Origin: a virus
Virus record (IMG/VR): IMGVR_UViG_3300035703_000009
Span: 1-64,000 of that record
DNA length: 64,000 bases
Direction: 5' to 3' (one strand)
Position numbers and translations under genes: made by a program. The notes under the pieces were generated by a model. It ran no database searches and had not been told where the DNA came from. It saw nothing but the letters and a program-made list of their open reading frames with translations. Positions 8,449 through 51,765 of the stretch are shown here, one piece after another; position 1 is the stretch's first letter; each line of letters begins with the position of its first letter.

Positions 8449-8460
8449 AAAACTTAACGA

Positions 8461-35743: not shown

Positions 35744-35747
35744 GAAT

Positions 35748-36101
35748 ATGGAAAAATTTGAAATTAGACCTTGGGGCTGGTTTGAAGTGTTAACTGAAGA
35801 CGTTAACTATAAAGTTAAAAGATTAGTAGTATGTCCAGGCAAAAGACTCTCATATCAATACCATAATAAAAGAAAAGAACATTGGGTTGTTGTGCAAGGA
35901 GATGGAGTTTTTATCTATGGAAATGATAATTCGACTTTTGAAAAAACTGTGGAAACAGGTAGTTCAATTTTTATTGAAATTGGTGAGTATCATCGTATAC
36001 AAAATACAGGAGAAAGTGATCTGATCATCATTGAAACCCAATTAGGTCAGTGTGATGAAGAAGACATTGTAAGAATAGTTGACGACTTCAATCGAGTCTA
36101 A
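35748..36101 (+). CDS. cupin-domain protein (mannose-6-phosphate isomerase type II C-terminal-like)
   Basis: RPWGWFEVL...KVKRLVVCPGKRLSYQYHNKRKEHWVVVQGDGVF matches the PMI/ManC cupin signature. The start taken is the ATG at 35748, not the upstream in-frame Met of the ORF track. Confidence 0.55.
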   Translation: MEKFEIRPWGWFEVLTEDVNYKVKRLVVCPGKRLSYQYHNKRKEHWVVVQGDGVFIYGNDNSTFEKTVETGSSIFIEIGEYHRIQNTGESDLIIIETQLGQCDEEDIVRIVDDFNRV

Positions 36102-36694: not shown

Positions 36695-36986
36695 TCAACC
36701 AGTCTCTAGAGTTCATATTTTTATCGTCAATGAAGACATCATATGCTGGCTTACCAAACTTTAGTTCGTGATACTGGACACCCCAAGTCCTAAGTTGTTG
36801 CTCAGTTAATTGTCTCCAATCGATTCCACTTTTAGTGCCCCTGGCAGTCCAGAAAACGATCTGGTGACCTTCCTCGTATAAAGCATTGACTTTTGCGATT
36901 GCCTGAGGAATCGGAGTCGCAGTTTCATACTTTAGGGACTCAGCTAGAGTGCAGATGGTGTCGTCAATGTCGATGTAGTAGGTCAT
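36687..36986 (-). CDS. small HAD-superfamily phosphatase
   Basis: YIDIDDTICTL (DxDxT), FWTARGT and KPAYDVFIDDK motifs. 99 aa. Confidence 0.5.
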   Translation of the reverse strand: MTYYIDIDDTICTLAESLKYETATPIPQAIAKVNALYEEGHQIVFWTARGTKSGIDWRQLTEQQLRTWGVQYHELKFGKPAYDVFIDDKNMNSRDWLNG

Positions 36987-37266
36987 CTATCTTAATGTTG
37001 TTTTCTTCTTTGAACTTTTCCCAAGCAGCCGCATCCATCATGTCTGGAAAGCGTGAGCCTCCATTGCAAGACTCCTTTACATAGATCTTGCCGGGAAAGG
37101 AACATCCGCAATTGATGCAAAATTCATATACGGCACAGTCATTCTTACAGACCTGTGAACGATAAAAGACTTGCTCTTTTTCGTGCTTAGGCAAGAGGTG
37201 GAACTGGTCGCCCAGCATCTTTAGGTTGCCCTCAATGAACTGGTAGATTTTCTTAGGGGTTATCAT
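36964..37266 (-). CDS. Cys-rich hypothetical protein (100 aa)
   Basis: CKNDCAVYEFCINCGCSFPGK cluster. Overlaps its neighbours by a few nt. Confidence 0.35.
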   Translation of the reverse strand: MITPKKIYQFIEGNLKMLGDQFHLLPKHEKEQVFYRSQVCKNDCAVYEFCINCGCSFPGKIYVKESCNGGSRFPDMMDAAAWEKFKEENNIKIDDLLHRH

Positions 37267-38153
37267 TTTCCTCTTAATGTTTTTCTTTTGTCAAGTTCAG
37301 ACTTAAGAACTTCTCTGGGGCCGTAACCTCCTCTAGCGCTTTCGATATCACGAATGCTCTTTATCAGCTTAATGAGTCCTTGGGGCTCGACTGAAGCTAT
37401 TTGATCACTGCCCCAAAGAGAACGATCGACTGTGATGTGACGTTCGATCCAGGTGGCTCCAAGCAAAGTTGCAGCAATGGTCGTAGTAAGTCCAAACTCA
37501 TGACCGGAATACCCCACCGCAAATGACTTTGGAAAGTCTTTACCCTTACTGATGTGGCTCAAGTAGGTGATATAGTCGAGATTAAGTTCATGATTTGGAG
37601 CAGGATAAGTAGAGTTAGTATGAAAAACTACATCAGGTCTACATTCAACTACTGCTAAGTCTATTTCCTCTTGTGTGCTCATACCGGTGGAGATAAGGAG
37701 AAAGTCTGAACAGTCTCGTGCGTATTGAATTAGCTCGAGGTCATGGATTAGGGCCGATGGTATTTTCATCATCACTCCCCACTTGCCATTAGGTAAGAGG
37801 GTCTCAAATTTTCGCGCAAAGTCAACTGACTTTTTGTCCCACACTGAGGTAAACCAACGCATTTTTCGAGCTTCGCAATAGTCATCTATTTCCTTGTACT
37901 GTTCATGGGAAAGCTCAATGTCGAGTTTATATTGAAAGTAAGTGGTCGCCTCTTTGCGCCAGGGCACCCTTTTTGTTTTTGACCTTTCCGCTTGAGGAAC
38001 ACACGATTCAGGATCACGTTTTTGAAACTTTACATAATCAACTCCGGAAACTGCCGCAATATCAATAAGTTTTTTTACATTATTGATGAATTCCTTCGTA
38101 GAGGAACCATATGCATAATTTATGCCTATTTCTGCAATTATCGTGGTTTTCAT
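37263..38153 (-). CDS. neuB: NeuB-family nonulosonic acid (sialic/legionaminic/pseudaminic acid) synthase
   Basis: IIAEIGINYAYGS, VKFQ, ISTGMST, VGYSGHEFG and IERHITVD match NeuB motifs IIAEIGCNHNG / ISTGMAT / VGYSDHSLG / IEKHFTLD. The start is set at the internal Met, which gives an ATGA overlap with the upstream gene. The ORF-track 5' extension reaches 38225. Confidence 0.75.
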   Translation of the reverse strand: MKTTIIAEIGINYAYGSSTKEFINNVKKLIDIAAVSGVDYVKFQKRDPESCVPQAERSKTKRVPWRKEATTYFQYKLDIELSHEQYKEIDDYCEARKMRWFTSVWDKKSVDFARKFETLLPNGKWGVMMKIPSALIHDLELIQYARDCSDFLLISTGMSTQEEIDLAVVECRPDVVFHTNSTYPAPNHELNLDYITYLSHISKGKDFPKSFAVGYSGHEFGLTTTIAATLLGATWIERHITVDRSLWGSDQIASVEPQGLIKLIKSIRDIESARGGYGPREVLKSELDKRKTLRGK

Positions 38154-39184
38154 GAGTTTACTAGAGAGTTTATCCAAGAAAAAGTTTTTTTCATTCCATC
38201 TACTAAAGGCTGGGAGACTTTCCAACCCATTTTTTCTTCATAAAGTTGGTTGTCTGAATTTCTACCTTTGACTCCAATTGGACACTTGAATCCGTACTTT
38301 TTCTTGAATTCTTCGCCTTCTATATTTTCAATAGAGATATTTTTATTTGAGATTAAGATCGCCATTTCAGCAAGTTGATTAATTGTAACCATCTCTTCAG
38401 AACCGATGTTGACAGGTCCTAAGAATCCATCTTGTCTCATGAATCTAAGAACTGCTTCAACACAATCATCAATGTACAAAAAAGAGCGAGTCTGCATACC
38501 GTCTCCCCAAACTTCTATGATACCTCCGCTCTGGGTTTCTGCTACTTTGCGGCACATTGCAGCGGGAGCCTTTTCCTTACCTCCTTTCCAAGTTCCATAG
38601 GGGCCAAATATGTTATGGAACCTGGCAATTCGCACGTCTAGCCCGTAGTTTCTATGAAAAGCTAAATAAAGTCGCTCACTAAAAAGTTTTTCCCAACCGT
38701 ATTCTGAGTCAGGATTTGCTGGATATGCTGATGACTCTTCACAATTTGGGTTATTTGGATCGAGCTGATTGTGCTCTGGGTACATGCACGCAGAAGAGCT
38801 ATAGAAAATCTTCTTTACTGATTTTTTGACGGCTTCATGTGCAACATTTAAGTTTATTAGAGATGAGTTATGCATTACATTAGCATCGTTATTACCTGTA
38901 AAAATATAACCAGCTCCTCCCATGTCAGCAGCAAGTTGATAAACTTCATCGAAAGATTTTTCTCTGTCCCCTTCAAAAGTTTGATTAGGAGATAACATGA
39001 CACAACTTACAAACTTAGGGTCTCTAAGATCACCTAAAATAAACTCATCACAAAAATCATCTTTATCAAAGTACTCATGAACTTTAATGTCAACTGCTCT
39101 GACCCAAAAGCCTTCTTCCTTTAATTTTTTAGCCAGGTGGCCTCCTATGAAGCCTCCTCCACCAAGTACTAGTGCCTTTTTCAT
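38150..39184 (-). CDS. NAD-dependent epimerase/dehydratase (GDP-L-fucose synthase-like extended SDR)
   Basis: LVLGGGGFIGGHL Rossmann motif. YSSSACMYP and VWGDGMQTRSFLYIDD resemble Fcl LGSSCIYP / VWGSGTPMREFLHVDD. Confidence 0.55.
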   Translation of the reverse strand: MKKALVLGGGGFIGGHLAKKLKEEGFWVRAVDIKVHEYFDKDDFCDEFILGDLRDPKFVSCVMLSPNQTFEGDREKSFDEVYQLAADMGGAGYIFTGNNDANVMHNSSLINLNVAHEAVKKSVKKIFYSSSACMYPEHNQLDPNNPNCEESSAYPANPDSEYGWEKLFSERLYLAFHRNYGLDVRIARFHNIFGPYGTWKGGKEKAPAAMCRKVAETQSGGIIEVWGDGMQTRSFLYIDDCVEAVLRFMRQDGFLGPVNIGSEEMVTINQLAEMAILISNKNISIENIEGEEFKKKYGFKCPIGVKGRNSDNQLYEEKMGWKVSQPLVDGMKKTFSWINSLVNS

Positions 39185-39921
39185 AATTTTCTTTTATTTT
39201 TTTCAAAAATTTTGTCTCCTGGAAAGGAGGCTGTATTTATGAATCCTTTTTGAGTTAAGAAAGCCATCATTTCATCTAGTGAATTTCCTGCCTGAACCGT
39301 ATGCTTTTGGTCCCACTCAATTATAAGAGTAAGGTTATTTGCTTTTTCTAAAAAATCGCTCATACCTTTTAATACATTCATCTCAAACCCTTGAACATCA
39401 ATTTTTATTAACCCAATATCGTAACTTGGATTTTCAAGTAAAAACGTGTCTAATTTTTTACAGACAACTTGCTCAGTAATGTAATTTTTAGAATTCATAT
39501 TAGAGATCGCAACCTCTTTGTTAAAGGAAGCATTGTCTGAGCAATAAGGAATGAATATTTCTTGAGTAGTATCAGAATCAAATAGAGCAAAGTTTAGAAT
39601 TTGCATGTTTTTACAAGAGTTTGCACTTTTACTCTGCTCTAACAATGAAACATTCATACTAAGCGGCTCAACTGATAGTACGGAATAACCATATTTTTCA
39701 GCAGGTATTGAAAACATTCCGCAATTTGCACCAACATCTAACACAGACCTAGATTTATCCATTTTTCTTACAAGATTAAGCATCATAGTGTAATCCTTCA
39801 TCTCATTGAGGTTTGTTCTAGCTTTTATTTTATAGTCAGTGACAAAATAGTCAAAATTAAAGATTACGTATTCAAAATTAGCGTTTTTAAAAATAAATCT
39901 TTCAGGTTTAGTAGAAATCAT
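39181..39921 (-). CDS. FkbM-family methyltransferase
   Basis: VLDVGANCGMFSIPAEK...VLSVEP matches the FkbM DVGANxG...EP signature. Confidence 0.5.
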   Translation of the reverse strand: MISTKPERFIFKNANFEYVIFNFDYFVTDYKIKARTNLNEMKDYTMMLNLVRKMDKSRSVLDVGANCGMFSIPAEKYGYSVLSVEPLSMNVSLLEQSKSANSCKNMQILNFALFDSDTTQEIFIPYCSDNASFNKEVAISNMNSKNYITEQVVCKKLDTFLLENPSYDIGLIKIDVQGFEMNVLKGMSDFLEKANNLTLIIEWDQKHTVQAGNSLDEMMAFLTQKGFINTASFPGDKIFEKNKRKL

Positions 39922-39932
39922 GAGCGTTTAGA

Positions 39933-40715
39933 TTATTTGAAGTAAGAATCATAATTAAAATCAGATAACTTATTTGAATAGTAATGAGGTCCTATTATTT
40001 TTAAGAATGCGTTTTGGTCCTTGATTCCACCGTCAGTGTCGCTAGCATTAGTCAACTGATTAGCCATACCGGGAGTAAATGAATAGCAGTTTAACGAAGG
40101 CTCAATTAGTATGAATGAGTGATCTATTGCTCGAGATCGGTGCACACACGCGTCCAGTAACTCTACTATTTTAGGTATTGAACTTGGATTAATTAAATAT
40201 GAGTGGCCGCAAAAAGAACCATATACTCGGTGTATGTACTTGATTCCAGTTAACTCATAATCCCCTCCTTTATTCCAACGACTGGGATCATTGTTTAGAT
40301 GATAAAAAGAAGAAAGGAAAAATATGTCCCAATCTAGGTTAAATTTTTCTTCAATGTACTTAAATCTTTCGTTAAAATCTTCGCAGAGAATGACATCATC
40401 TTCAAATATTCCAAGTATCTTATCACTGCTAGTATCGTATTCTTTAATTAGAGTGTAGTGGGAGCGATAGCATTTTTTCTGTCCTTCAGAAAAGGCTGAA
40501 CTAAATGGTATGCTGCAGCCAGATAAGTCTTCGTACGCTCTAAATTTTTTAGCATCGATGTTATGCTTTTTTAATTCAGAATTAACGTGGGCAAGTCTGT
40601 CTACTCTTCTGTCTAAATTTATGAAATAGAAGTCAATGTTCTTTCTTTCTATTTTTAAGAAGGTTTTTGTGTGAGCCATATACTTATGTATTATTTTTGT
40701 CTTATTTTTATCCAT
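39933..40715 (-). CDS. GT25-family glycosyltransferase
   Basis: FYFINLDRRVDRLAHV N-terminal motif and FEDDVIL, typical of GT25. Confidence 0.5.
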   Translation of the reverse strand: MDKNKTKIIHKYMAHTKTFLKIERKNIDFYFINLDRRVDRLAHVNSELKKHNIDAKKFRAYEDLSGCSIPFSSAFSEGQKKCYRSHYTLIKEYDTSSDKILGIFEDDVILCEDFNERFKYIEEKFNLDWDIFFLSSFYHLNNDPSRWNKGGDYELTGIKYIHRVYGSFCGHSYLINPSSIPKIVELLDACVHRSRAIDHSFILIEPSLNCYSFTPGMANQLTNASDTDGGIKDQNAFLKIIGPHYYSNKLSDFNYDSYFK

Positions 40716-41530
40716 CTTTCTGGAGTCAAAGCATTAGTATCAAAGCTTTGATAGTCTGGTCCAAACCACTCATCTGGATAAGGACAGTAAACAAGCTTAT
40801 CCGTAGATTTTGATAAATATGCAGCCCACCATGAAAAAGTACTGTTTGCAATAATGAAGTGGTCACACAAAGACTGAGCTATGAAGTCACTAATATAATC
40901 ATCGCTATAGTCAAAATAAGTAATAGGTTTTTGATATTTTTCAAATTTTCCAAATATGAATTCTTTAGTATCTTCATTATCAGTAAAGATGCATATTTCA
41001 TCGATGCTTTTTTTAGATAAAATGTCTTCTATACTTCTTTGATAGTATTCTAAAGTAAGAACTGGGTGTCTATGCTCGACACCTTTATGCCCTCCTCCAA
41101 ATTTACGATCATACTGATCACCCCAGCGTATGTGAATCGAAAGTTTCTTTGAGTTCTGATTCATTTTACTATTAACCTTTTCTATAATAGTTGGGTCAAA
41201 GACCAAATACTCAAGTACTTTTTTTTCATAATCATCAAAAAACAAAGAGGACTGAAAATATCCTACTATTTCTACTAATTTATCACTAGTTGGAATATTG
41301 TGGATTCCAAATTTAGATTCCTTATGAGTCAGTGAAATATTTGACTTTATTTTGACAGAGGAACGTGTAGGTAGATTTGGAAAAAGCTTTGCGTGCTCCC
41401 ACTCAGATGGAACAAAAAAGCTACTGTTGTTCTTAATTGCTTGACCAATAATAGTCGCAACTCTAAACAATTGATTGCCAAGGCGTCCATGACGATGGTC
41501 TAATATTTGCAAAGTAGTGAAACCTTTCAT
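40691..41530 (-). CDS. GT11-like alpha-1,2-fucosyltransferase
   Basis: HGRLGNQLF (GGLGNQMFQ-like) and LSIHIRWGDQY (HxRRGDY-like) motifs. Confidence 0.5.
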   Translation of the reverse strand: MKGFTTLQILDHRHGRLGNQLFRVATIIGQAIKNNSSFFVPSEWEHAKLFPNLPTRSSVKIKSNISLTHKESKFGIHNIPTSDKLVEIVGYFQSSLFFDDYEKKVLEYLVFDPTIIEKVNSKMNQNSKKLSIHIRWGDQYDRKFGGGHKGVEHRHPVLTLEYYQRSIEDILSKKSIDEICIFTDNEDTKEFIFGKFEKYQKPITYFDYSDDYISDFIAQSLCDHFIIANSTFSWWAAYLSKSTDKLVYCPYPDEWFGPDYQSFDTNALTPERWIKIRQK

Positions 41531-41546
41531 ATTTAAAAATTGTTTT

Positions 41547-42464
41547 TTATGAGTTTTGTACTACACTAGACTCAATGAGTTTAGACGGAAGCATTATTTT
41601 CGGTTCACTGAAACTTGCACTTTTAAAAAATTTATCATTATAATTGATAGTGTTTCGAGTAAGTGTGTGATGAAAGATTCCATCGTAATAGCTTTGGCTA
41701 TGATATACACTAGCTACATAGCTAAGAGAACTCTTTGACATTATGAATGCATCTGATTTGATTATTCTATCTAGCGTTTTTACAGGGTGCTCATCTAAAT
41801 GAAAAAATACTTTTCCATGCGCATTAAGTTCATTAAAATATTGAAAATCTAAAATGTCACCTTGAGAGTAAATATGAAATTGAATATTTTTATTAGTGGG
41901 CATGATTTCTTTAACGAAGTCAATGGAGCCGTTAGGAATATTGGGGTAATAATATCTACGCCATTCGGAGAAATCAGTGTCCTCGTCAGTAGCTCGTCTA
42001 ACATGAATAGAAATAATGAAATCTGAATTTTCTTCTCTTGGGTATTTTTTAATTAACTCTTCTTGAATATTGTTTAATAGAAAAATGTTATGGTCAGTTA
42101 GTGTCTTTAGATCTGCCCAGTGAAGATTAACTATTGATTTTTCTAAAGAGGAAGGATTATATATTAAAGTGTCTAACAATTCATATACACTCAGCTCTAC
42201 TACAGGAAGCGAATCAGACTCAGTAATCGAGTCTCTTAATAAAAAATCTCGAGTATATTCAAAAAAATGAAGATCCCATTCTTCTTGAGAAAAATTAAAT
42301 TTTTGAATGTGTCCAACGTTTTTCATTGGAGTTAATAAAAAATCAACTCCATAGTGTTTAGCCAATGCATAGCCGCCTAATTGAAGTTGAAAGGCAGAAC
42401 CAAAACCTTCGTTGTGTCCAGGAAGGTATAAATTTGAACAATCTATCTCACATTTTATTATCAT
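41547..42464 (-). CDS. putative glycosyltransferase (GT11-like?)
   Basis: GFGSAFQLQLGGYA and SIHVRRATDED weakly resemble GT11 motifs. Confidence 0.3.
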   Translation of the reverse strand: MIIKCEIDCSNLYLPGHNEGFGSAFQLQLGGYALAKHYGVDFLLTPMKNVGHIQKFNFSQEEWDLHFFEYTRDFLLRDSITESDSLPVVELSVYELLDTLIYNPSSLEKSIVNLHWADLKTLTDHNIFLLNNIQEELIKKYPREENSDFIISIHVRRATDEDTDFSEWRRYYYPNIPNGSIDFVKEIMPTNKNIQFHIYSQGDILDFQYFNELNAHGKVFFHLDEHPVKTLDRIIKSDAFIMSKSSLSYVASVYHSQSYYDGIFHHTLTRNTINYNDKFFKSASFSEPKIMLPSKLIESSVVQNS

Positions 42465-43171
42465 TACATTCCTCCAGTAAAATTTGAAAAATCTTTATTT
42501 AAAATTATATTATTCTGAAAACGAAGATTTCCATCAAAAGTTTGATAAAAAGTAAAATTTTGAGTTTTCATAAAATCTAATATTTCTTCTCTAGAAGAAG
42601 CATTTTCATACTGATATCGACAATCGTCTTCCATGTCCAAAAATTGAACTCTACGCAAATGTGGACCTAAACTCTTTGTAATATCTAAATCTTTTCCTTG
42701 AGCATCTATTTTTATTAATTCGATGTGTTCATATACTAGTGAGTCCAATAACATCTTAAGAGAAAAGGTTTCCACGTCAATTTCGCAATCTATTTCACAC
42801 TCTGGAATATTTTGCAATTTTGGAGTCAATAGACTAGAACAGCCAACATTTCCACTAAGAAGGTAAAATTTACTTTCACGTAAGGTGTCAACATTATCAC
42901 AAGCACCAATTATATGATAATAGTTTTCTTTTTGTTCATTTTCTTTAAATACATCTAATATGTTCCAGGTTTTTCCATCCCACTCATTTATTCCATCCAA
43001 ACAATAAGGATTAGGTTCGATTCCAATTACAAAAATATTTTTGACATTAGAGAACCACTGACGTGTGACTGGAGCGCTTATTGACGTGCCTATGTCAAAT
43101 CGCAATTTTTTATTTTTTAACTTTGAATTTAGTAATTTAAAATCACAATTTGAAAATTTACTAAAATTCAT
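42464..43171 (-). CDS. FkbM-like methyltransferase (divergent)
   Basis: RFDIGTSISAPV...VIGIEPNP pattern. Confidence 0.35.
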   Translation of the reverse strand: MNFSKFSNCDFKLLNSKLKNKKLRFDIGTSISAPVTRQWFSNVKNIFVIGIEPNPYCLDGINEWDGKTWNILDVFKENEQKENYYHIIGACDNVDTLRESKFYLLSGNVGCSSLLTPKLQNIPECEIDCEIDVETFSLKMLLDSLVYEHIELIKIDAQGKDLDITKSLGPHLRRVQFLDMEDDCRYQYENASSREEILDFMKTQNFTFYQTFDGNLRFQNNIILNKDFSNFTGGM

Positions 43172-43809
43172 TTTGTAAAAATATAATTTTCTCCATCAAA
43201 AACTTCTTTTTCAAAATATCCTATTGACTCCAAGTAATTTTTAGCATCTTGAATAGTATGACCTCGCTTTTCAAGAGCGTGATTGAGCTCTATGATAATT
43301 AAAGGAGACTGCTCTCTTAAAAACTTTTCACCGCCTAAGAGCACTTCATAATCATAGGAGTCAACATCAATTTTTATTAAGTCTATTTTTTTTCCAATTT
43401 GTTCAACAAAAGAATTTAGAGTTATGAAATCATGTTCGCGATCATCAGTTATACCTTGAGACCAAACTTTAAAAATTTTATCTAGTTTAAGGCCATCTTC
43501 TTTTCCAAGAGGTCTATTAATTAGAATTACGTTCTCTTTACAGTCATTGTATGCCAAGTTTTTCTCTAACATATCGACAATATCAGTAGGTTCAAATGCA
43601 TAAACTGTTCCTTTTGATGCAAGTTTAGAAAAAGGAATTGTGTACATTCCTATGTTTGCACCTGCGTCTATGATATTAAATTCAGGCTTTACGTAAGAAT
43701 GTATAAACTTTTTAGTGGAAATCTCAGCAGAAGAAAACCAGCCGGCGTCACATTCGTTATATGATGGAAAAGAATATGAAATTTCTGAAGTATATTGAAT
43801 TGAGATCAT
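43168..43809 (-). CDS. FkbM-family methyltransferase
   Basis: NIIDAGANIGMYTIP...VYAFEPT signature. Confidence 0.5.
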   Translation of the reverse strand: MISIQYTSEISYSFPSYNECDAGWFSSAEISTKKFIHSYVKPEFNIIDAGANIGMYTIPFSKLASKGTVYAFEPTDIVDMLEKNLAYNDCKENVILINRPLGKEDGLKLDKIFKVWSQGITDDREHDFITLNSFVEQIGKKIDLIKIDVDSYDYEVLLGGEKFLREQSPLIIIELNHALEKRGHTIQDAKNYLESIGYFEKEVFDGENYIFTK

Positions 43810-44366
43810 AGTTGTGGGGTTATGTAAGCTACACCGCTATTTGTGAGGCTAGACGTGCTAAAGGTTACAGTATAATTAAGTTTTCCATAAATTTCATCTA
43901 GCGAGTTGTTCACGTAGCTCAAATTAAGAGGTTGGCCTCGATAGATATCGTATCCGAACTTAGGATTTTCATTTTCATCAGGAACAAAAAAATCATGAAT
44001 AGCAATAACTGGGATTATTTGCTTTTTTTTAATCTCAAAAAGTTCATCTAAAAGAGGCCAGTACTCTTCCCAATGCGCATCTAAAAAGAAAAAAGTATTT
44101 GAAGTTAAGGATTTGCTGCGTATAATTTCTGGGCTATTTCCTAAAATTAGCTCACAATTTGTAATCTCTTTTAAAGTCTGTTCAGCTATCTTGTAGTTTT
44201 GCAAATCATTTTCTACTGTAAAAACCTTGGAAAAATACGGCGCAACTATCCTGGCAGATTCTCCAAGATAAGATCCAGTTTCAAAAAAAACATCTATTTT
44301 GTATTTTTTGGATAAGTTAATAGTCCACTCTAATAGTTGAGGATCTGAATACGCAGGTCTAGTCAT
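43806..44366 (-). CDS. TylF/MycF-like class I SAM-dependent O-methyltransferase
   Basis: FFETGSYLGESARIVA resembles ETGVFRGGS. A D..H motif (FLDAHW) lies downstream. Confidence 0.4.
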   Translation of the reverse strand: MTRPAYSDPQLLEWTINLSKKYKIDVFFETGSYLGESARIVAPYFSKVFTVENDLQNYKIAEQTLKEITNCELILGNSPEIIRSKSLTSNTFFFLDAHWEEYWPLLDELFEIKKKQIIPVIAIHDFFVPDENENPKFGYDIYRGQPLNLSYVNNSLDEIYGKLNYTVTFSTSSLTNSGVAYITPQL

Positions 44367-44376
44367 CGTAGTTCAT

Positions 44377-45138
44377 TTATTTTTTAAACACTGGGATGTT
44401 TTGCATCTTGTGTGAATTTTGAGTGTTAAAACTTCGGTAAATCCCTATTACTTCTTTTTCTCTAGCTGAAAGCTTGTCCAGATCAGCGGCAGTAAAATAA
44501 GGATTTTTTTCTAAAAACTGCATAGCCCATTCAAGTTCAGCATAGGAAGCACCTATTTGATCTTCATCGCTTCGTCCGTCTTCCCAGAGTCCATCAGTTG
44601 GTTTTGCTTTAATAATTGATCTAGATATTCCCAAATCTTCCCCTAGCTCCCATACCTCAGTTTTTAATAAATCAGCAATAGGGCTAATATCTACTCCTCC
44701 ATCTCCATATTTTGTAAAGAAACCGACTCCAAAGTCTTCTACTTTGTTGCCTGTTCCAACAACCAGCCCATGATTCTCAGTAGCGATTTGATAGAGAGTC
44801 ATCATTCTGAGTCTTGACCTAGAGTTAGCCAACGCAAGTTTGTTATCTTTTGTAAACAACGACTTAAAATTTTCAAAAACTTGGGTAAGATTCAACTCAA
44901 TTGATTCAACATTTGAGAAGTTGCTCTTTAACCAAGAAATGTGTTCATCTGCTCTAGTTAACTGATCTGGCGCTTGATGAATAGGCATGCTTACAACAAT
45001 GGTTTTTATTCCGGTCATTGCACAAAGAGTAGAAACAACGGCAGAGTCTATTCCTCCAGAAACTCCTATAATAAATGTTTTAAGATTAGCCGATTTTAAA
45101 TAATCATTCAACCACTTTGAAATTTGTTGTTGTAACAT
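44377..45138 (-). CDS. nadE: NH3-dependent NAD+ synthetase
   Basis: FIIGVSGGIDSAV PP-loop. GFFTKYGDGGVDISPI is nearly identical to E. coli NadE GFFTKYGDGGTDINPL. 253 aa. Confidence 0.8.
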   Translation of the reverse strand: MLQQQISKWLNDYLKSANLKTFIIGVSGGIDSAVVSTLCAMTGIKTIVVSMPIHQAPDQLTRADEHISWLKSNFSNVESIELNLTQVFENFKSLFTKDNKLALANSRSRLRMMTLYQIATENHGLVVGTGNKVEDFGVGFFTKYGDGGVDISPIADLLKTEVWELGEDLGISRSIIKAKPTDGLWEDGRSDEDQIGASYAELEWAMQFLEKNPYFTAADLDKLSAREKEVIGIYRSFNTQNSHKMQNIPVFKK

Positions 45139-46204
45139 TCTTGATTTGATTTTTTACTTCTTCTCGATTATCTAATACTAACACTTCATATCCAAGTTCT
45201 GCTAAAGCTACTGCGTATTTTAGCTGTTGAGACTCCTCAATTAAGGTACTTTCTGCCTTATATGTAACGTATGGTAACTCTACTTTAATTGATTTATCGG
45301 GATTAGCTTTAATAAAGTCCTCGATTTGATATTGTAAATGTTTTTCATTCATTTCATCGGTTGCTTTAGAGATTACTGCATCGATTCCTACTTCTTCGCC
45401 ACACTTAGCTAGTGCTCTATTATCCCTAGGAAAACAGGGACCTCCGAATCCAAAACCAGGTCTTAAATATTTGTTTCCAATTCTTGAGTCAGTTCCGATC
45501 GCCTTTAAAACGACATCTGCATTGCACTCTAGTCTTTTTGCAATATCGCCGACCATGTTTGCAAAACTGATCTTGGTTGTCAAAAAGCAGTTTACTGAAA
45601 GTTTAGTCAATTCAGCTTCGGTGCAGCTCATCCTATTAAAAATTGGGCTAGAATCACACAGTCTTTCGTAAACTTGCTGTATACGATTGCCTGCATCAAG
45701 GTCAGCTTGCCCAATCAATACGTTATCACAATTTAGTTGATCTTTAATGATTGTGCCTTGTGCTATAAATTCTGGATTATAGGAGACTTTATAATTGTAT
45801 TCAGATAGCTTATTTTGAAGAGTCTCGCAATATCCAGGAAAGGTGGTACAATTTATTATTAAGTCTTTTCTTGTTTCTTGTTTTCCAAAAGAGATTAGCT
45901 TTTCTGCAATCTGCTCTATTTGTGAATGGTCATATTTCCAATCGTTAGTTGAAGGAGTTCTGACCACAACAAAAATGAGATTACTCTCTAGCGCTCTTTC
46001 CAAATTAGTTGTAAATTCTACATTTTTAGATTCAATCAAAAATTCATTTACGTATGGTTCTGATGTTCGAAAAGACTTTGAAGAAAGAGCATCTATGTAA
46101 TCTTGAGAAACATCTACGCCTAGTACAAAATATCCTTTTCTCTCTAAATTTAAAGCTAAACATAAGCCAAGTTTACCTACTCCGATTATCGAAATTTTGT
46201 TCAT
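45104..46204 (-). CDS. nucleotide-sugar 6-dehydrogenase (UDP-glucose/UDP-ManNAc dehydrogenase family)
   Basis: ISIIGVGKLG N-terminal Rossmann motif. GFGFGGPCFPRD contains the catalytic Cys motif. Confidence 0.75.
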   Translation of the reverse strand: MNKISIIGVGKLGLCLALNLERKGYFVLGVDVSQDYIDALSSKSFRTSEPYVNEFLIESKNVEFTTNLERALESNLIFVVVRTPSTNDWKYDHSQIEQIAEKLISFGKQETRKDLIINCTTFPGYCETLQNKLSEYNYKVSYNPEFIAQGTIIKDQLNCDNVLIGQADLDAGNRIQQVYERLCDSSPIFNRMSCTEAELTKLSVNCFLTTKISFANMVGDIAKRLECNADVVLKAIGTDSRIGNKYLRPGFGFGGPCFPRDNRALAKCGEEVGIDAVISKATDEMNEKHLQYQIEDFIKANPDKSIKVELPYVTYKAESTLIEESQQLKYAVALAELGYEVLVLDNREEVKNQIKNVTTTNFKVVE

Positions 46205-46868
46205 TTTTTACCATTTTTTGATTATTTATCGTTTTTTTAGTTAAGTGCTTAGTATTTTTGATAAAACGATCTATTATGAAATCGTAATTTACTTCTTTTT
46301 TTTCTATGTCGCTATGTCCTGGAATCTGAATAGCAGCTAACGGATAGCTACCGAAACACTCAAACTTACTTTGAACATTTTTTGCGAGCCATACATCAAT
46401 TATTTCGATGTTATTATTTTCAAAAGCATGCAATATAAAGTCAAATATTGTAGAATTATACGCTATTGCGTGTGCAGCATAACAGTTAGTTATTTTTAAG
46501 AGGTTTGGGCTCACTTGACTAAGTGAGGAATGACTATTATATCCAAGGTAATAGAGAGCCCAATGAGTCCTCTGTAGCTGATCTATCGCAGGAGGAATAA
46601 AGTTAATATTCATTAGTTCAAAGTCATCTTCGAAGACCAAAACATTTTTTAAGCCTAATGCTTTTGCTCTTTTGATTGTTTCTATGTGAGAAAGTAGACA
46701 GCCTTGACGACCGTTGCCGTCTGGAGGAACTATGCCTGAGAGTCTCTCAACGCGATCAGCTATTCCTAGCTGGTTAAAAATAGTCAACGCTCTAGCTAAG
46801 CGATCTGGTCTAGAATCTAAATTAATTAAGTAAATCTTTTGAAAATAATTAAATGCTTCCTTTATCAT
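46173..46868 (-). CDS. GT25-family glycosyltransferase
   Basis: IYLINLDSRPDRL and VFEDDFEL motifs. Confidence 0.5.
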   Translation of the reverse strand: MIKEAFNYFQKIYLINLDSRPDRLARALTIFNQLGIADRVERLSGIVPPDGNGRQGCLLSHIETIKRAKALGLKNVLVFEDDFELMNINFIPPAIDQLQRTHWALYYLGYNSHSSLSQVSPNLLKITNCYAAHAIAYNSTIFDFILHAFENNNIEIIDVWLAKNVQSKFECFGSYPLAAIQIPGHSDIEKKEVNYDFIIDRFIKNTKHLTKKTINNQKMVKNEQNFDNRSR

Positions 46869-47482
46869 GCGTCAATTTTACCCAGATGACAAACAACGTA
46901 ATCTGGAGTATCTATTTTATAGTGTTTTTCCTTTAAGATATGACTAATACTGGTCCAATCATGGCCATATCCGTCCGCCCATTGAAATGAGCAAGCACGA
47001 CGGTGGCAAATTGAACTTGTACCGATCCTATTTGCCTTGGGCTCGACCGTCCTTTTCCATTTTTTTTCTCCATTAAAGATATAATCGTCATAGTAACACC
47101 AAACATACTCTGAATCTTTAAAGCCACTAAGTATCTCAAGGTGTGTACTTCCAAAATAATCATCACTGTCTAAATAGCACACAATCTCGCCTGTGGATTG
47201 AGTTAAACCGGCTTGCCTAACTGTTCCGCTAAATAAGGGTTGTTTTGGAAGTTCAATCAAACGCACAGCTGAAAAATTAGAGTATTTTTCTCGAGTTATT
47301 TTTGAAGTTTTTTCGCAGCCGTCACTCACAATTATGAGCTCAGCACTCTTAAAAGTCTGGTCCAAAAAAGAATTTACTGCGCGTCTAAATTTGAACTCAC
47401 GATTTGAGGCAGCTTCAAACCCTCCACTAGTGTAGTGATCTAAATATGAAGCCATGATTACAGTTATCCTTGGAGAATTCAT
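46865..47482 (-). CDS. GT2-family glycosyltransferase
   Basis: ITVIMASY...IIVSDGC and YLDSDDYF (DxD) motifs. Confidence 0.5.
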   Translation of the reverse strand: MNSPRITVIMASYLDHYTSGGFEAASNREFKFRRAVNSFLDQTFKSAELIIVSDGCEKTSKITREKYSNFSAVRLIELPKQPLFSGTVRQAGLTQSTGEIVCYLDSDDYFGSTHLEILSGFKDSEYVWCYYDDYIFNGEKKWKRTVEPKANRIGTSSICHRRACSFQWADGYGHDWTSISHILKEKHYKIDTPDYVVCHLGKIDA

Positions 47483-48195
47483 GACAGTTCGTTGATTTTT
47501 AAAAAAGTTGGCTTAAAAGCACATAGATCAAAACATACATCCAGCTTTCCATGAGAAAAACCCATCTTTTTATACTCAGAAACATCACGATTTGAGATCC
47601 CAGGAATCCTAGGAGTTATTCCTTGAAAATGTATTATTGGAGAACTAGTAATGATTGCAAAATTCCATCCTTTTCTATAGAGCATATCATATAGGTAATC
47701 ATCTCCGCAAAAAAAGTGCAGATTTCTTGGAATTTGAGAGTATGCGGACCTACGCATGGTAAAGTCCCAACCTTGACGGTACTTACCATGAAAAATTCGA
47801 TATTCAAGTTGTGTACAAGACTGATAATTTGGGTGATTTGTTGAGTGAGCAACGCAGCCTACTCGCGGTTCTCTTTCAAAGACGTCAAGAGTGTCCTTAA
47901 TGAAATTTTTTGGAATTATTAGGTCGTTATTTAAAAAACAGCACAACTCATAATTATTTTTAAGAGCAAAATCGTTCCACACGTGGTTTAGTGGACGATT
48001 TTGTCCTGTATATTCTATCTTCTTTAAAAAGGAAAAAGAAAGTTGATCTAGGGACTCTCTAGTGCCGGGCTCAGTAGACCCATTATCGACGACTGTCAAC
48101 TCGAAATCCAGGCAACTCTGAACCGACAGTTGCGTAATTAGATCAATTGTATACTTTATATGATTTCTGTTAATTATTATTACGCCTAATTTCAT
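47479..48195 (-). CDS. GT2-family glycosyltransferase
   Basis: LGVIIINRN...LTVVDNGS N-terminal GT-A signature. Confidence 0.5.
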   Translation of the reverse strand: MKLGVIIINRNHIKYTIDLITQLSVQSCLDFELTVVDNGSTEPGTRESLDQLSFSFLKKIEYTGQNRPLNHVWNDFALKNNYELCCFLNNDLIIPKNFIKDTLDVFEREPRVGCVAHSTNHPNYQSCTQLEYRIFHGKYRQGWDFTMRRSAYSQIPRNLHFFCGDDYLYDMLYRKGWNFAIITSSPIIHFQGITPRIPGISNRDVSEYKKMGFSHGKLDVCFDLCAFKPTFLKINELS

Positions 48196-49052
48196 AAAGA
48201 ATCGTATATTTTAGTAAATTCGTTTACTATTGTTTGAGGATGCCAGTGTTGTTCCATCCAACTCCTACTTTCCTTTCCTTTTTCAAGAATAAAATCAAGA
48301 CCGGCATCGACTATTTTGTTTAGTTCCGTCTCAAGGGAATTGATCCAAACGTTGAAAAAAGGAGAAACTTGAGCACCAGAGGAAGAGAGTAGTATTTTTT
48401 CAACGTCTGGAGAAAGAGAGCATATTGTGAGTTTGCCAAGTGCAAGTCCTTCTAAACCTGATCTATGATAGCTTGAAGTAACGCACTCATCTATAATTAT
48501 GTTGCATTTTGATTTGCGAGCAATACAAGCATCAAGAGAGACTCCAGTTATCACATCAATTTCTACAGAGGTGCCATACTCTCTTTTAATCTTGTTAAGT
48601 ACTGCAAGAGTCTGATCATATCCCTTATCGTGCCACTTACCGAGTTTTTTTGTTCGGCTTGGAGAAAAACCTATTTTAATTGCATGTGAAACCTGCTGAG
48701 AAGAATATTGCGGAGTTGTGAAGTCAATCACATTTCTAACTATTGAGCAGCCTGAATACTCTGGCAGAGTTGCATGATATTGAGAAATTACTAACTTGCG
48801 GTCAACTCGGCTTTTTAGGTCTACTTGAAAAGGTTCGCTATGGTATTGCAAAACAGTTTTGATCCCATGCCGATTGCCAGGTAAGAGATTATGAGCATGT
48901 AGAATACTACCTGCTGGGAAGGCACGCATAGCCGGTGCACCTAATCCTGCCATCTCGCATCGATAGCCTTGACCGAATTTATTGATGGCTTTAGCTAATT
49001 CTAAAGGAGCTTGAGCAATAGGTGTTTGTCTATAGTGATAAACTATTTTCAT
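48192..49052 (-). CDS. hypothetical protein (286 aa), possible glycosyltransferase
   Basis: Embedded in the glycosyltransferase run. No motif recognised. Confidence 0.3.
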   Translation of the reverse strand: MKIVYHYRQTPIAQAPLELAKAINKFGQGYRCEMAGLGAPAMRAFPAGSILHAHNLLPGNRHGIKTVLQYHSEPFQVDLKSRVDRKLVISQYHATLPEYSGCSIVRNVIDFTTPQYSSQQVSHAIKIGFSPSRTKKLGKWHDKGYDQTLAVLNKIKREYGTSVEIDVITGVSLDACIARKSKCNIIIDECVTSSYHRSGLEGLALGKLTICSLSPDVEKILLSSSGAQVSPFFNVWINSLETELNKIVDAGLDFILEKGKESRSWMEQHWHPQTIVNEFTKIYDSL

Positions 49053-49055
49053 TAT

Positions 49056-50513
49056 TTACTTTTTTTTTAATATTCCTGGTTCGCCTTTTTCAAATTTACA
49101 AGTAAGATACTTTAACTCTAACAAGTAATTATGCACACTAGAAATATTCTTATCTGAATTTGATCTAAATATTGAATTTAATCCGTTTGTGTAGCCGTTA
49201 AAACCAAACAGGGACAGTGAATAGTGCGGAATCTTTAACTCCTCTAATAACAAAATCATGCTAAGTCCACTAGTTGGAAGAAGATAGCTTTTTTTTAAAG
49301 CGGCAGATATAGAAATTAGAGCAGGGTAGTGGTAGTTTAGTATTTTCTTGCTAGGATAACTAGCACAAATGTCACTGACTGCTTTGTGCCAAAGATCAAT
49401 AGGTTTTGAGAAAACTATCAAATAATCTGAGGGTTGGTCTAAATTAAATCTAGCCTGCCGAAATATGCAGTGAACGCTTGTTTTAGTGCCGGTGTGAGTA
49501 GGTTCGATTGGATAACCGTTGAATCTAATAACTACATCATGTGAATCAATTAGTTCTCCATGTTGGTGTTCTAAAAGTTCTGAAGAATTTGCGATTATTG
49601 CTATTTTTTTGCCAGTTAAATACTCTTTGAATGAACTTAATGAAGTTAACTTAGATTTAAGTAAAAATCTGTTTTCAGAAGATCTATTCAGTGTAATTGG
49701 TATTGAACTATTTTGCTGTTTTACATGAGGAATCGGCCTAGGTTGTTCTTCGGCATTTATAGTTTGTCTATCAGAATTAAAAGAACTCGGCTGGACTAAA
49801 AATTGGCTACTTTCTTTGTTTTTAAAAAGCCACACTTGATTGATTTTAGAATATTGAGCTGAGTTGTTTAGAGTTGTGAAAAGAATTACATCTTTAGACT
49901 CTAAGGAAGCTCGCATAGTTATAAATTTAGAGTCTAAGTATTCATTTGAAAAAGAAATGTTAGCTTCAGAATAAAAACTAGGATTTAGACAAGAATTCAA
50001 GTGATTATTTAGTTGTAAATCTAACGAATTGGAAGTTAACATTCTATTTGAGAGTTCATGGTAAACTTCTTCAGATAATGATATTTTTTCACTTAGGTGA
50101 AAAAAGAGAACTGAATTGAGCGCTTTGCCTAACTTATTTTCAGATATGAAATTACAGCTTTTTTGAAAAATTGAATAGTTAGAAAAGTATAGTAAACTTT
50201 CGTTTTCTGTAGATTCATTAAATACTGTCCATTTTAGAGCAGAGTTCACCAGTTCAAAATATTGCACTCGTCCCTTATATTTGTCTATTACACTAAAAAT
50301 AGGATGCGACGTTTGTAATTTTATTGCGAGCTTTGGATAAATTTTAAGAAGAATGTCATAATTCCTAGTGGATAATTGATCCATAGGATGATCGAGTAGG
50401 TTAATTGTACCAGTAAACCATGGATTGTTTTTTATAAAAGAAAAAATACTGGTTCTAAGTAGGTGAAAATTTTTGTTAGTGGCCTCAGTATACGCATTAA
50501 CTATCTTATCCAT
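49056..50513 (-). CDS. two-domain protein with C-terminal GT29-like (eukaryotic-type) sialyltransferase domain
   Basis: KKIAIIANSSELLEHQHGELIDSHDVVIRFNGYPIEPTHTGTKTSVHCIF matches sialylmotif L (C.VVGNSG.L..S..G..ID.HD.V.R.N.AP....DVG.KT). LPTSGLSMILLLEE...FGF matches motif S, and HNYLLE matches motif VS (Hx4E). The N-terminal 280 aa are unassigned. Confidence 0.55.
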   Translation of the reverse strand: MDKIVNAYTEATNKNFHLLRTSIFSFIKNNPWFTGTINLLDHPMDQLSTRNYDILLKIYPKLAIKLQTSHPIFSVIDKYKGRVQYFELVNSALKWTVFNESTENESLLYFSNYSIFQKSCNFISENKLGKALNSVLFFHLSEKISLSEEVYHELSNRMLTSNSLDLQLNNHLNSCLNPSFYSEANISFSNEYLDSKFITMRASLESKDVILFTTLNNSAQYSKINQVWLFKNKESSQFLVQPSSFNSDRQTINAEEQPRPIPHVKQQNSSIPITLNRSSENRFLLKSKLTSLSSFKEYLTGKKIAIIANSSELLEHQHGELIDSHDVVIRFNGYPIEPTHTGTKTSVHCIFRQARFNLDQPSDYLIVFSKPIDLWHKAVSDICASYPSKKILNYHYPALISISAALKKSYLLPTSGLSMILLLEELKIPHYSLSLFGFNGYTNGLNSIFRSNSDKNISSVHNYLLELKYLTCKFEKGEPGILKKK

Positions 50514-51151
50514 TTTACTTGATCTAAGTCTTTTTGAGTGTCGACGTCAACTACATCTTCGATCGGGTAGAACACGGTAGACGGGCCGTACATATTCTTA
50601 TTTAATTTATAGAGAGCAGAAGCTCTAAAGATGCACATGTAGTGACTGATCTCAAAGCACTTTGGATAGTCTTGGCGTCGGTATAGATCGTGTTCAAGTA
50701 AAGGCTTGCCGAAAACGCCGTCTGCTCCATGCTCCTGTAACATGAGATAAGGTGAGACTTTAAGTTCCTTCTTACATAGCATAGAATCAGCAAGACCTAA
50801 GTCAGCAAACTGACAGTAATATTCATAAGCCGCGTAAATCTCTTTCCAGGTCCTCTCTGGATAGGTTAAGTAGAGCATTATTACTTCAGCAGACATGGGA
50901 AGCCCGACGTTTTTTACGGCGTGTTGCATCACGTCCCGAATGTTAGCAGAGTCGTCTGATAGTTCAGAAGGACGATCGATTGCACAACACCCATGCTTAA
51001 TGGCTAACTGAAATATCTCAGGGTCGTCGGTCGTCACAAAAACACGTCTACGAAGAGACTCTGGAATCGAGTCTATTGTCGCTTTAAAAAGCTTACGGTT
51101 CTTAAAGGGTAGGCCCTTGGAACCCAGTCTGGCTGGAATGATGATGTTCAT
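50501..51151 (-). CDS. neuA: CMP-nonulosonic acid synthetase (NeuA-like acylneuraminate cytidylyltransferase)
   Basis: MNIIIPARLGSKGLPFKNRKLF matches NeuA/KdsB IIPARGGSKGIxxKN. Confidence 0.75.
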   Translation of the reverse strand: MNIIIPARLGSKGLPFKNRKLFKATIDSIPESLRRRVFVTTDDPEIFQLAIKHGCCAIDRPSELSDDSANIRDVMQHAVKNVGLPMSAEVIMLYLTYPERTWKEIYAAYEYYCQFADLGLADSMLCKKELKVSPYLMLQEHGADGVFGKPLLEHDLYRRQDYPKCFEISHYMCIFRASALYKLNKNMYGPSTVFYPIEDVVDVDTQKDLDQVKWIR

Positions 51152-51765
51152 AGTTGATCGAACTCTTTGAGAGTTATTTTTGGAATCTGTAGGTTACTAG
51201 ACTCGCTCAAGTTGTAAAAAGATACTCCGCGCCTTTCAAGCTCAGCTCTAAGCTTTTGATAAGCAAGATTGACCTTAGTCAGGTGCTTAGTCTTAACGAC
51301 ACTGTGCGCTCCATCCTTGGGATTATAAAAGTGCCCGTCTGTAAAGTCGACACCAATAACGCCGATGTGTTTTGCTCCCAATCGATACGCTAGGCAGACC
51401 GCACAATACGGCGAATTCAAATAGTGATCGAGATGGTTCTTTTTATCTAGACAAGTCAGCTCTCGAGTACCTAACTCAAAATAGATTAGGCTAGTGTGTC
51501 GCCAGCCCCTGGCGCAAGTAAAGAGGTGTTTTGACTTTGACTGTACTACTAGGTCCTTGCGTTTACCGACAAACCGTAATGGGCTGTCTGTGACTAGTAA
51601 ATAGGTCGGAGTAAAAAGGGCCGGCACGTCGTTGACTCCGATCGTGGTGTATCGTTCCGCATGTTCAGCAAAGCCCAGCAGAGAAGTGCCACAGCCACAG
51701 ACTATGATCTTTTCACCTGAATGCGGACGGTCAATGTCCTTAAGAGATTTGATTAAGCTAGACAC
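51148..51765 (-). CDS. hypothetical protein, possible Maf/DUF115-like glycosyltransferase
   Basis: KIIVCGCGTSL resembles the xIxGNGPSL motif of Maf/Cst-II-like enzymes. Weak. Confidence 0.25.
   Translation of the reverse strand: MSSLIKSLKDIDRPHSGEKIIVCGCGTSLLGFAEHAERYTTIGVNDVPALFTPTYLLVTDSPLRFVGKRKDLVVQSKSKHLFTCARGWRHTSLIYFELGTRELTCLDKKNHLDHYLNSPYCAVCLAYRLGAKHIGVIGVDFTDGHFYNPKDGAHSVVKTKHLTKVNLAYQKLRAELERRGVSFYNLSESSNLQIPKITLKEFDQL

Follow-up and report, generated by a model that had tools for sequence, protein, structure and literature searches.

Whether a phage gene carrying the sialylmotifs of glycosyltransferase family 29 (GT29) was taken from an animal or another eukaryote, and what its product does, is the question raised by a 64,000-nucleotide (nt) stretch of viral DNA (positions 1 to 64,000 of IMG/VR record IMGVR_UViG_3300035703_000009), referred to below as the window. 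The gene concerned, here called gene X, is an open reading frame (ORF) that the original prediction, made from the letters of the DNA, had described as a eukaryotic-type sialyltransferase of a kind essentially absent from bacteriophages. The ORF itself is real; it lies on the minus strand, begins with ATG and encodes 485 amino acids (aa). In the best explanation, to which a probability of about 70% is assigned when it is taken as a whole, the product of gene X is a soluble, cytoplasmic two-domain glycosyltransferase in which residues 1-240 form a GT8-derived GT-A fold with a lost DxD motif, and the GT29 domain that follows belongs, judging from its sequence, to the prokaryotic/viral branch of the family and not to the animal one. 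The gene and its parts are as follows.

49056..50513, minus strand: gene X, ATG start, 485 aa; GT8-derived N-terminal module (N-module), linker and GT29 domain
49794..50513, minus strand: N-module, residues 1-240; predicted GT8-type GT-A fold, with S111-N112-x113 in place of DxD
49629..49793, minus strand: linker, residues 241-295; rich in S, Q, P and N, variable in length and sequence
49059..49628, minus strand: GT29 domain, residues 296-485; compact, cysteine-free and anchor-less, predicted GT-A variant 2 fold
49461..49610, minus strand: sialylmotif L, residues 302-351; cytidine monophosphate (CMP)-donor binding region, from Pfam and PDB alignments, the latter with motif L of ST3Gal-I and ST6Gal1
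49200..49277, minus strand: sialylmotif S, residues 413-438; from the family profile aligned to motif S of ST3Gal-I
49116..49133, minus strand: sialylmotif VS, H461-x4-E466 (HNYLLE, residues 461-466); H461 is the predicted catalytic base

Membership of the C-terminal domain in GT29

Residues 296-485 belong to GT29 in sequence and in fold family. The Pfam model Glyco_transf_29 (PF00777) was matched with an E-value of 9.7e-9 and 35.4 bits against a gathering score of 23, and a phmmer search of the PDB returned pig ST3Gal-I at an E-value of 3.6e-6 and ST6Gal1 at about 0.006. When a profile of the C-terminal domain family was used instead, the alignment with ST3Gal-I extended from motif L through motif S (E 2e-10), and ST6Gal1, ST6GalNAc2 and ST8SiaIII were also matched, which brings the GT29 subfamilies represented to four; no GT42 chain (CstI/CstII) in the PDB was matched by this profile, and GT42 was the best match neither in sequence nor in fold. 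The AlphaFold2 model, with a predicted local distance difference test (pLDDT) score of 95.6, was counted toward membership, and the domain is predicted to adopt the GT-A variant 2 fold of GT29 enzymes. The GT29 assignment holds as originally predicted, and so does the order of motifs L, S and VS, the strings quoted for them lying at residues 304-351, 413-438 and 461-466.

The consensus of motif VS in GT29 is H-x4-E, with the histidine as catalytic base (PMC8433944). Gene X has 15 full-length two-domain homologues (clusters at 90% identity), which are 34-43% identical to its product. In the alignment of this family, the residues K302, A308, N309, S310, D323, S324, D326, R330, F331, N332, T341, G342, K344, T345 and H348 of motif L and T414, G416, G437 and F438 of motif S are invariant, as are Y441, S447, R450 and E466, and H461 is nearly so. 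Across 39 diverse relatives, D323, D326, R330, N332, G342, T345, G416, G437 and E466 are all invariant, with H461 and Y441 again nearly invariant. The linker region corresponds to gap-rich, poorly conserved columns (approximately 268-340) of the 15-homologue alignment, and in four longer proteins of 734-761 aa (P0098, P0123, P0125 and P0128) about 280 residues lie between the N-module at 1-250 and the GT29 domain at approximately 530-750. No hydrophobic segment was found in the gene X protein, in which the maximum 19-residue hydropathy is 1.11.

Position of the phage domain within GT29

In animal GT29 enzymes, a cysteine of motif L and one of motif S form an essential disulfide (PMC8433944). 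The GT29 domain of gene X lacks both, with I304 and A305 at the motif L position and a motif S free of cysteine, and no conserved motif L or motif S cysteine was found among the 15 aligned homologues. Anchor and L/S cysteines are likewise missing from the 23 bacterial GT29 sequences of Petit et al. (2018), which were described as basal to the eukaryotic enzymes (PMC5811610); the motif strings of these sequences, from Pseudovibrio and others, closely resemble those of the phage family. A scan of one genome per GTDB species located GT29 relatives in 60 genomes of many phyla, the nearest cellular relative being that of the actinobacterial genus Isoptericola, with 35-37% identity across the whole domain. 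Relatives are also encoded on 93 IMG/VR viral contigs, and UniProt and NCBI nr already name a phage GT29 protein, so that the family can no longer be called essentially absent from bacteriophages.

The relatives were ranked by their score against a hidden Markov model (HMM) of the phage family, with eukaryotic sequences taken from the supplement of Petit et al. Members of the phage family on viral contigs reached 310-333 bits, members of a second viral clade 190-210 bits, Isoptericola about 128 bits, other bacteria 25-74 bits and eukaryotes 13-59 bits; among the last, animal ST3Gal enzymes scored 13-34 bits (human ST3Gal, 13-31). A tree of 176 sequences and 161 columns was generated by neighbour joining (NJ), a crude method, with 200 bootstraps and with ST6Gal, ST8Sia and ST6GalNAc left out. 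It recovered the phage family at 99% bootstrap and a clade of this family with 15 metagenomic, 4 IMG/VR and 2 Isoptericola sequences at 56%, and all 19 eukaryotic sequences formed an exclusive clade at 46%. It is because of the missing anchor and L/S cysteines, the bacterial sequences of Petit et al., the distribution of relatives, the score ranking and the tree that the phage domain is assigned to the prokaryotic/viral branch. The term eukaryotic-type does not suit a domain without anchor or L/S cysteines in a phylogeny that sets the eukaryotes apart in a clade of their own.

The closest cellular homologue is a 470-aa protein of Isoptericola halotolerans (7209-8621 of locus L002), which is encoded in a cell-wall polysaccharide locus together with GT4, phosphomannomutase, pyruvyl transferase and GlfT2-like families. 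The N-terminal 270 aa of this protein do not match the phage N-module.

The N-terminal module

The original prediction had left the N-terminal 280 aa of the protein unassigned. Residues 1-240 can now be attributed to a predicted GT8-type fold, and residues 241-295 to the variable linker. No Pfam or PDB match to the N-module was obtained by sequence, and the GT8 model PF01501 was matched by one of the 11 family members (E 0.024), with none reaching the threshold. The module was resolved only by a fold search and an exhaustive HMMER search. In the fold search, its model was placed with GT8-type GT-A folds, the structural neighbours including GlyE and LgtC. The HMMER search with the N-domain profile produced 229 clusters, 110 of them at E <= 1e-10. 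Its weak, short matches were ordinary GT8-like proteins with 'LYLDxDmlv' in the DxD columns, where the strong family members have 'LLYFSNxSLF'; D-x-D has therefore become S111-N112-x113. A T-x-x-x-D-x-x-F motif is common to the N-module and the GT8-like proteins, with D13 of the motif replaced by N13 in the window protein itself, and R20, H42, K94, K196, K223 and Q226 are near-invariant polar residues of the module. Use of a DxD-less module of this kind as a fusion partner was seen only in this phage lineage. Its architecture suggests that it would serve as a constant docking or acceptor-recognition module and not as a second active site.

Exchange of catalytic domains among sister phages

The C-terminal domains of 77 proteins of at least 400 aa with a strong N-module were compared. 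GT29 domains were present in 22, GT2 domains in 28 and complete, DxD-bearing GT8 domains in 18, with a few of other kinds. The best GT8 variant (P0087, contig L150) and the best GT2 variant (P0092, contig L151) occur in the same gene order as in the window, that is Gp23, protease and DnaJ genes and then those of a 205-aa protein, a cytidylyltransferase and gene X; L150 runs on through NeuB and small ORFs to a baseplate-V gene, and L151 stops just past gene X. Between a contig with the GT29 variant (L141) and L150, identity is 94% for DnaJ, 99% for the 205-aa protein, 92% for the cytidylyltransferase and 95% for NeuB; the N-modules are 71% identical, and the C-terminal domains are unrelated. 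Gene X therefore straddles the boundary between a constant flank and a variable centre, with a GT29 domain that represents one among several exchangeable catalytic modules. At 90% identity, the constant 205-aa family comprises 389 clusters, compared with 15 for the GT29 fusion (22 clusters at 50% identity), so that GT29 is a minority variant in an abundant lineage. Exchange of the C-terminal domain together with the downstream genes would change the 'serotype' of the glycan. The architecture of the N-module and the modular exchange of catalytic domains are what is new here; a constant DxD-less module with exchangeable catalytic domains at one locus suggests how large phages vary their surface glycan.

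The glycan island

Gene X is part of an island of glycan-related genes with the following principal features.

36098..51765, minus strand: glycan island, 21 co-directional genes, 15.7 kb; conserved ends and variable centre
51148..51765, minus strand: 205-aa constant protein, weakly MptE-like (DUF115/Maf-type fold), sub-threshold PF01973
50501..51151, minus strand: CMP-(non)ulosonic acid synthetase-like cytidylyltransferase, PF02348 (CTP_transf_3); 13-nt overlap with gene X
48192..49052, minus strand: 286-aa protein, found with the GT29 gene in two phage clades
37263..38225, minus strand: NeuB-family nonulosonic acid synthase, PF03102 (E 5.6e-55); constant flank
36687..36986, minus strand: 99-aa HAD-type phosphatase, DxDxT motif 'IDIDDT'; candidate nonulosonate-9-phosphate phosphatase
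36098..36694, minus strand: 198-aa constant protein at the end of the island; no family match

According to the ORF map, genes of the island overlap or are separated by gaps of at most 16 nt, and their GC content is 0.31-0.40 compared with 0.40-0.47 in the flanks. No membrane protein was predicted among the 21 products (maximum 19-residue hydropathy 1.66). The families encoded are NeuB, an Fcl-like short-chain dehydrogenase/reductase, three FkbM methyltransferases, two GT25, GT11, NadE, a UDP-Glc/GDP-Man dehydrogenase, two GT2, the CTP_transf_3 cytidylyltransferase and the HAD phosphatase, and several products have no assignment. A scan of the island for promoters and terminators gave counts equal to those of shuffled sequences, and a tRNA scan found none.

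The cytidylyltransferase is constant in all sister phages; its best NCBIfam match is PseF, under the cut-off, followed by KdsB models. For NeuB, which is 74-95% identical among sister phages, NCBIfam ranked NeuB_NnaB above PseI, both under the cut-off. The 99-aa HAD protein has weak NCBIfam matches to BT0820-type and capsule-biosynthesis phosphatases and is conserved in L141 and L145. In all three orthologues of the 205-aa protein PF01973 is sub-threshold, the best score being 21.3 bits against a cut-off of 34.6, and a few homologues carry a precomputed PF01973 label; the protein is a candidate second nonulosonic-acid transferase. It was also considered as a paralogue of GT29, but this was not established, the hhalign E-values of 0.14 and 0.045 not being significant and no PDB match being obtained. 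Proteins of about 285 aa related to the 286-aa protein (46-70% identity) are present in L141 (11422-12285), L143, L147 (8914-9756), L148 and L149. No Pfam or PDB match was found for the 286-aa protein and no copy after the GT8 and GT2 variants; it is likely a dedicated partner of GT29.

The surroundings of gene X had been described as including NeuB, NeuA and a Cst-II/Maf-like transferase. The NeuB gene (37263-38225) and a CMP-sugar cytidylyltransferase (50501-51151) are indeed present, and the third assignment, at 36098-36694, was dropped, there being no Pfam or NCBIfam match and an hhalign E-value of 0.43 against GT29. The first 45 or so residues of this 198-aa protein weakly resemble the 205-aa protein (hhalign E 7e-4, probability 27%).

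Several further ORFs lie in or near the island. Directly downstream of NeuB is a 100-aa cysteine-rich ORF (CxxDC…CxxCGC; 36964-37266, minus strand) without a family match, which is kept in all sister phages; an ORF of about 100 aa is also present in the second clade. NadE (44377-45138, minus strand) is encoded between the UDP-Glc/GDP-Man dehydrogenase and an ORF without assignment; NAD+ synthesis is reported for jumbo phages (PMC11662467). Abutting the island is a mannose-6-phosphate isomerase-type cupin ORF (35628-36101, plus strand), which shares about 115 nt with the end of the baseplate hub gene; the corresponding interval of L141 is too short to hold it. The third GT25-family glycosyltransferase of the window (3438-4094, minus strand) lies 32 kb from the island.

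The phage and its relatives

The window encodes a T4-type Gp23 capsid protein, portal protein, prohead protease, DNA polymerase, helicase, topoisomerase II, gp5-like baseplate hub protein and PhoH. No match among deposited phages was found by tblastn (protein) or megablast (20 kb). The capsid protein is 30-38% identical to those of huge phages (LR7565xx records, Lak phages). Contigs of 198.8 and 207.1 kb encode proteins that cluster with the window protein at 90% identity, which indicates a jumbo phage of about 200 kb. The phage is T4-like and probably of freshwater origin.

A full-length DnaJ with J domain and C-terminal domain (51831-52826, plus strand) is encoded in divergent orientation to the island, immediately before the genes for prohead protease and capsid. 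It is kept in all sister phages and recalls the description of the 'moraphages', reported in 2025 as freshwater phages of 200-307 kb with DnaJ, a relationship to Lak phages and several core glycosyltransferases (PMC12619734). After the head module follows a 590-aa protein (57746-59518, plus strand) composed of about 30 copies of a Ser/Thr/Gly/Asn- and Cys-rich repeat of approximately 14 residues ('STVSGGxxNTASG'), with Pfam matches to UspA1_rep and beta-roll models; its gene is not syntenic in sister phages. The protein resembles a fibre or adhesin and is a possible substrate of glycosylation. The replication and morphogenesis region also contains genes for an SPFH/Band-7 domain protein (5807-6988, minus strand) and the PhoH-like ATPase (18735-19523, plus strand).

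In the second viral clade, which is sister to the fusion family, GT29 stands alone as a single-domain protein of about 310 aa; the contigs that encode it measure 187-270 kb and also carry holin, dUTPase and PhoH genes. The cassette of this clade comprises an MptE-like gene, a cytidylyltransferase, GT29, a protein of about 280 aa, and then NeuB with an ORF of about 100 aa. Between the two clades, the proteins of about 285 aa encoded after the GT29 gene share 46-49% identity. In L148, the place of the MptE-like gene is taken by a 177-aa ORF with a PF00777 match (6853-7386, plus strand), so that some phages carry two GT29-type genes flanking the cytidylyltransferase.

Donor, target and alternative readings

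Genes of a donor pathway (NeuB, HAD phosphatase and CTP_transf_3) lie in cis with gene X, and the same cassette is present in the second clade of large phages. The GT29 domain most likely transfers a CMP-activated nonulosonic acid, which would be made by the neighbouring enzymes. Following the enzymology of GT29 (PMC8433944), transfer would be inverting, by a metal-independent SN2 reaction with H461 of motif VS as the base. The acceptor would be a hydroxyl group on a sugar of the glycan that the neighbouring transferases would assemble, and this glycan would decorate phage proteins or the surface glycolipid of the infected cell. The constant pair of NeuB and HAD phosphatase hints, speculatively, at the 9-phosphate route. 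As for DNA hypermodification as the target, no hydroxymethylase-type gene was found within the 64 kb examined.

Capture of an animal-type or other eukaryotic GT29 sialyltransferase by the phage would be in line with the best solved-structure matches, which are animal enzymes, as far as structures can tell when, to our knowledge, no prokaryotic GT29 structure has been solved; the protein 16g00850 of the prasinophyte Bathycoccus, at 59 bits, is also level with the best of the bacteria of Petit et al. However, gene X encodes neither signal anchor nor stem and no L/S cysteines, its N-terminus is modelled as a folded GT8-like domain, Isoptericola (128 bits) and other phages (190-333 bits) outscore any eukaryote (<=59 bits), and in the NJ tree the exclusive eukaryotic clade stands away from the phage family. 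The host, moreover, is bacterial, since the phage is T4-like, and bacterial GT29 had already been called basal to the eukaryotic enzymes (PMC5811610). A eukaryotic donor was rejected on anchor, cysteines, score ranking and tree, and eukaryotic capture is thus highly improbable. Were the N-module an active, metal-independent retaining hexosyltransferase, gene X would be truly bifunctional and comparable to the capsule polymerases of Neisseria meningitidis W and Y, with their hexosyl- and sialyltransferase domains. The nucleotide-binding-like T-x-x-x-D-x-x-F motif and the many near-invariant polar residues would fit such an activity, and a metal-independent GT-A with NxN for DxD is reported for a bacterial GT6 (PMC3516806). 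It is nevertheless rather unlikely that the module is active: DxD is lost in every strong family member, D13 of the motif is N13 in the window protein, and 18 clusters join the module to a complete, DxD-bearing GT8 domain, a partner that would be redundant if both domains were active hexosyltransferases. A docking role of the N-module is preferred. Use of a different CMP-sugar by the C-terminal domain, namely CMP-3-deoxy-D-manno-octulosonic acid (CMP-Kdo) or that of another ulosonic acid, is improbable. A donor of the CMP-Kdo type has been proposed for plant GT29-like proteins, and KdsB models come second among the matches of the neighbouring cytidylyltransferase. Against this, the constant partner in every locus is a NeuB-family synthase and not KdsA, and PseF is the best cytidylyltransferase match. 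Petit et al. (2018) regarded the function of non-animal GT29 as not predictable (PMC5811610), which leaves room for such a donor.

A number of points weigh against the explanation preferred here, that of a soluble fusion of a degenerate GT8-type module with a prokaryotic/viral GT29 domain that transfers a nonulosonic acid. The PF00777 match is limited to residues 301-351, the motif L region. Relative P0017 has Asn at the position of H461, and S447-I-F-R450, which aligns under the eukaryotic motif III H-Y-Y/F, is non-canonical by the consensus used, (H/y)-Y-(Y/W/F/h)-(D/E/q/g); motif III consists of four residues in a variable loop, with the invariant Y441 nearby, and is likewise degenerate in the bacterial sequences of Petit et al. 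The deep nodes of the NJ tree are unsupported, and its eukaryotic and bacterial references were taken from a PDF processed by optical character recognition. The N-module could be active without metal because it has kept the nucleotide-binding-like motif and conserved polar residues. Typing of the nonulosonic acid by NCBIfam left NeuB and the cytidylyltransferase under every equivalog cut-off, no characterised prokaryotic or phage GT29 that would anchor donor or acceptor was found in the literature, and the sequence covered amounts to 64 kb of a genome of about 200 kb.

With respect to the target of the glycan, cytoplasmic glycosylation of phage proteins (capsid, tail or fibre), giving a variable virion coat capped with nonulosonic acid, is held tentatively, at somewhat less than an even chance. 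All 21 island proteins are soluble, and no flippase, polymerase, ligase or priming transferase was found in the island. The constant 205-aa protein has a weak likeness to MptE/Maf, and flagellin is a direct glycosylation substrate of Maf enzymes. The island of this clade is located between the baseplate hub and head genes, with the fibre-like Ser/Thr-rich repeat protein of 590 aa past the head module, and GlyE, a GT8 of protein O-glycans, is among the structural neighbours of the N-module. Virion glycosylation in mycobacteriophages provides a precedent (Freeman 2023, as cited in PMC12619734). On the other hand, the cassette of the sister clade adjoins PhoH, dUTPase and holin genes and not structural genes, the substrates among phage proteins are candidates only, and the fibre-like gene lacks synteny in relatives. 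The position of the cassette in the sister clade would suit remodelling of the infected host's lipooligosaccharide (LOS), lipopolysaccharide core or other envelope glycan, by which, for instance, superinfection would be blocked or re-adsorption of progeny avoided; this is possible, and also below an even chance by a clear step. The combination in the window of three GT25, GT11, GT2, sialyltransferase, NeuB, CMP-synthetase and FkbM resembles LOS outer-core loci, such a mix being typical of those of Campylobacter, Haemophilus and Neisseria, which act on lipid A-core at the inner membrane face, where no dedicated flippase is required. A cell-wall polysaccharide locus is also the location of the closest bacterial homologue, and LgtC, a GT8 of LOS, is another structural neighbour of the N-module. 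However, it is temperate phages that classically bring about seroconversion, and this phage has the look of a lytic T4-like jumbo phage. We know of no precedent for LOS sialylation in Bacteroidota, and the host may be a member of that phylum. Such a host is predicted for the similar 'moraphages' (PMC12619734).

An abundant lineage of freshwater jumbo phages with its own cytoplasmic, nonulosonic-acid-capped glycosylation of virion proteins, the 'serotype' of which is switched by recombination of GT29, GT2 or GT8 domains onto a constant pseudo-glycosyltransferase docking module, would combine these elements; as a whole this proposal is somewhat unlikely. If true, it would amount to a modular mechanism of glycan diversification not yet described for phages, and would make available the first tractable GT29 enzyme of minimal size and without disulfide, with a bearing on the prokaryotic origin of the eukaryotic sialyltransferases.

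Comparison with known systems

Phage GT29 is already known at the level of annotation. NCBI nr and UniProt list A0A6J5NLG3 (CAB4159542.1) as 'Glycosyl transferase family 29 [uncultured Caudovirales phage]', a protein of the same two-domain family; it is from a different phage and has an automatic name only. It shares a 90% cluster with P0013, whose full-length identity to the window protein is 34%, and among viral structures its prediction ranks first against the model of the window C-terminal domain, with a template modelling (TM) score of 0.96 and 48% identity. Predicted GT29-like proteins of herpesviruses, poxviruses and Mimiviridae follow among the viral structure matches. No paper on phage GT29 was found in the literature. 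The phage itself is likened by description to the 'moraphages', with which it shares the status of freshwater jumbo phage, DnaJ beside the head genes, a distant capsid relationship to Lak phages and core glycosyltransferases; the paper describing them makes no mention of GT29, sialyltransferases or nonulosonic acids (PMC12619734).

Compared with GT8 enzymes (LgtC, glycogenin, GlyE and 3tzt), the N-module has S-N-x in place of DxD, has no PF01501 match at threshold, and serves as the constant N-terminal partner of unrelated catalytic domains. In superfold, CstI/CstII of GT42 and Maf proteins (MptE-like/DUF115) are related, and their CMP-nonulosonate donor is of the kind predicted here. The bacterial GT29 proteins (Petit et al. 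2018, PMC5811610) share with the window protein motifs L, S and VS, the lack of an anchor and of the L/S cysteine pair, and an uncharacterised function. They are often fused to other glycosyltransferase domains, as in the GT2-GT29 protein of Helicobacter pullorum, and longer fusions are present in Sinorhizobium and Leucothrix. The window protein differs from them in being phage-borne, in forming a clade with phage and Isoptericola sequences, in its GT8-derived, DxD-less partner and in its compact domain of about 190 aa.

Relative to the animal Golgi sialyltransferases ST3Gal-I, ST6Gal1, ST6GalNAc2 and ST8SiaIII, with which it is 17-24% identical, the window protein has no type II anchor, stem or essential disulfide, its motif III is non-canonical, and its GT29 domain is smaller by about 80-100 residues. 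The presence of GT29 motifs in a phage is no sign of gene capture from animals; the motifs belong to a prokaryotic/viral branch of the family that is broad and has hardly been studied. Being soluble, about 190 aa long and without the disulfide that makes animal sialyltransferases hard to produce, the phage domain therefore offers a practical entry to enzymology, to glyco-engineering and to tests of the proposed bacterial origin of the eukaryotic sialyltransferases.

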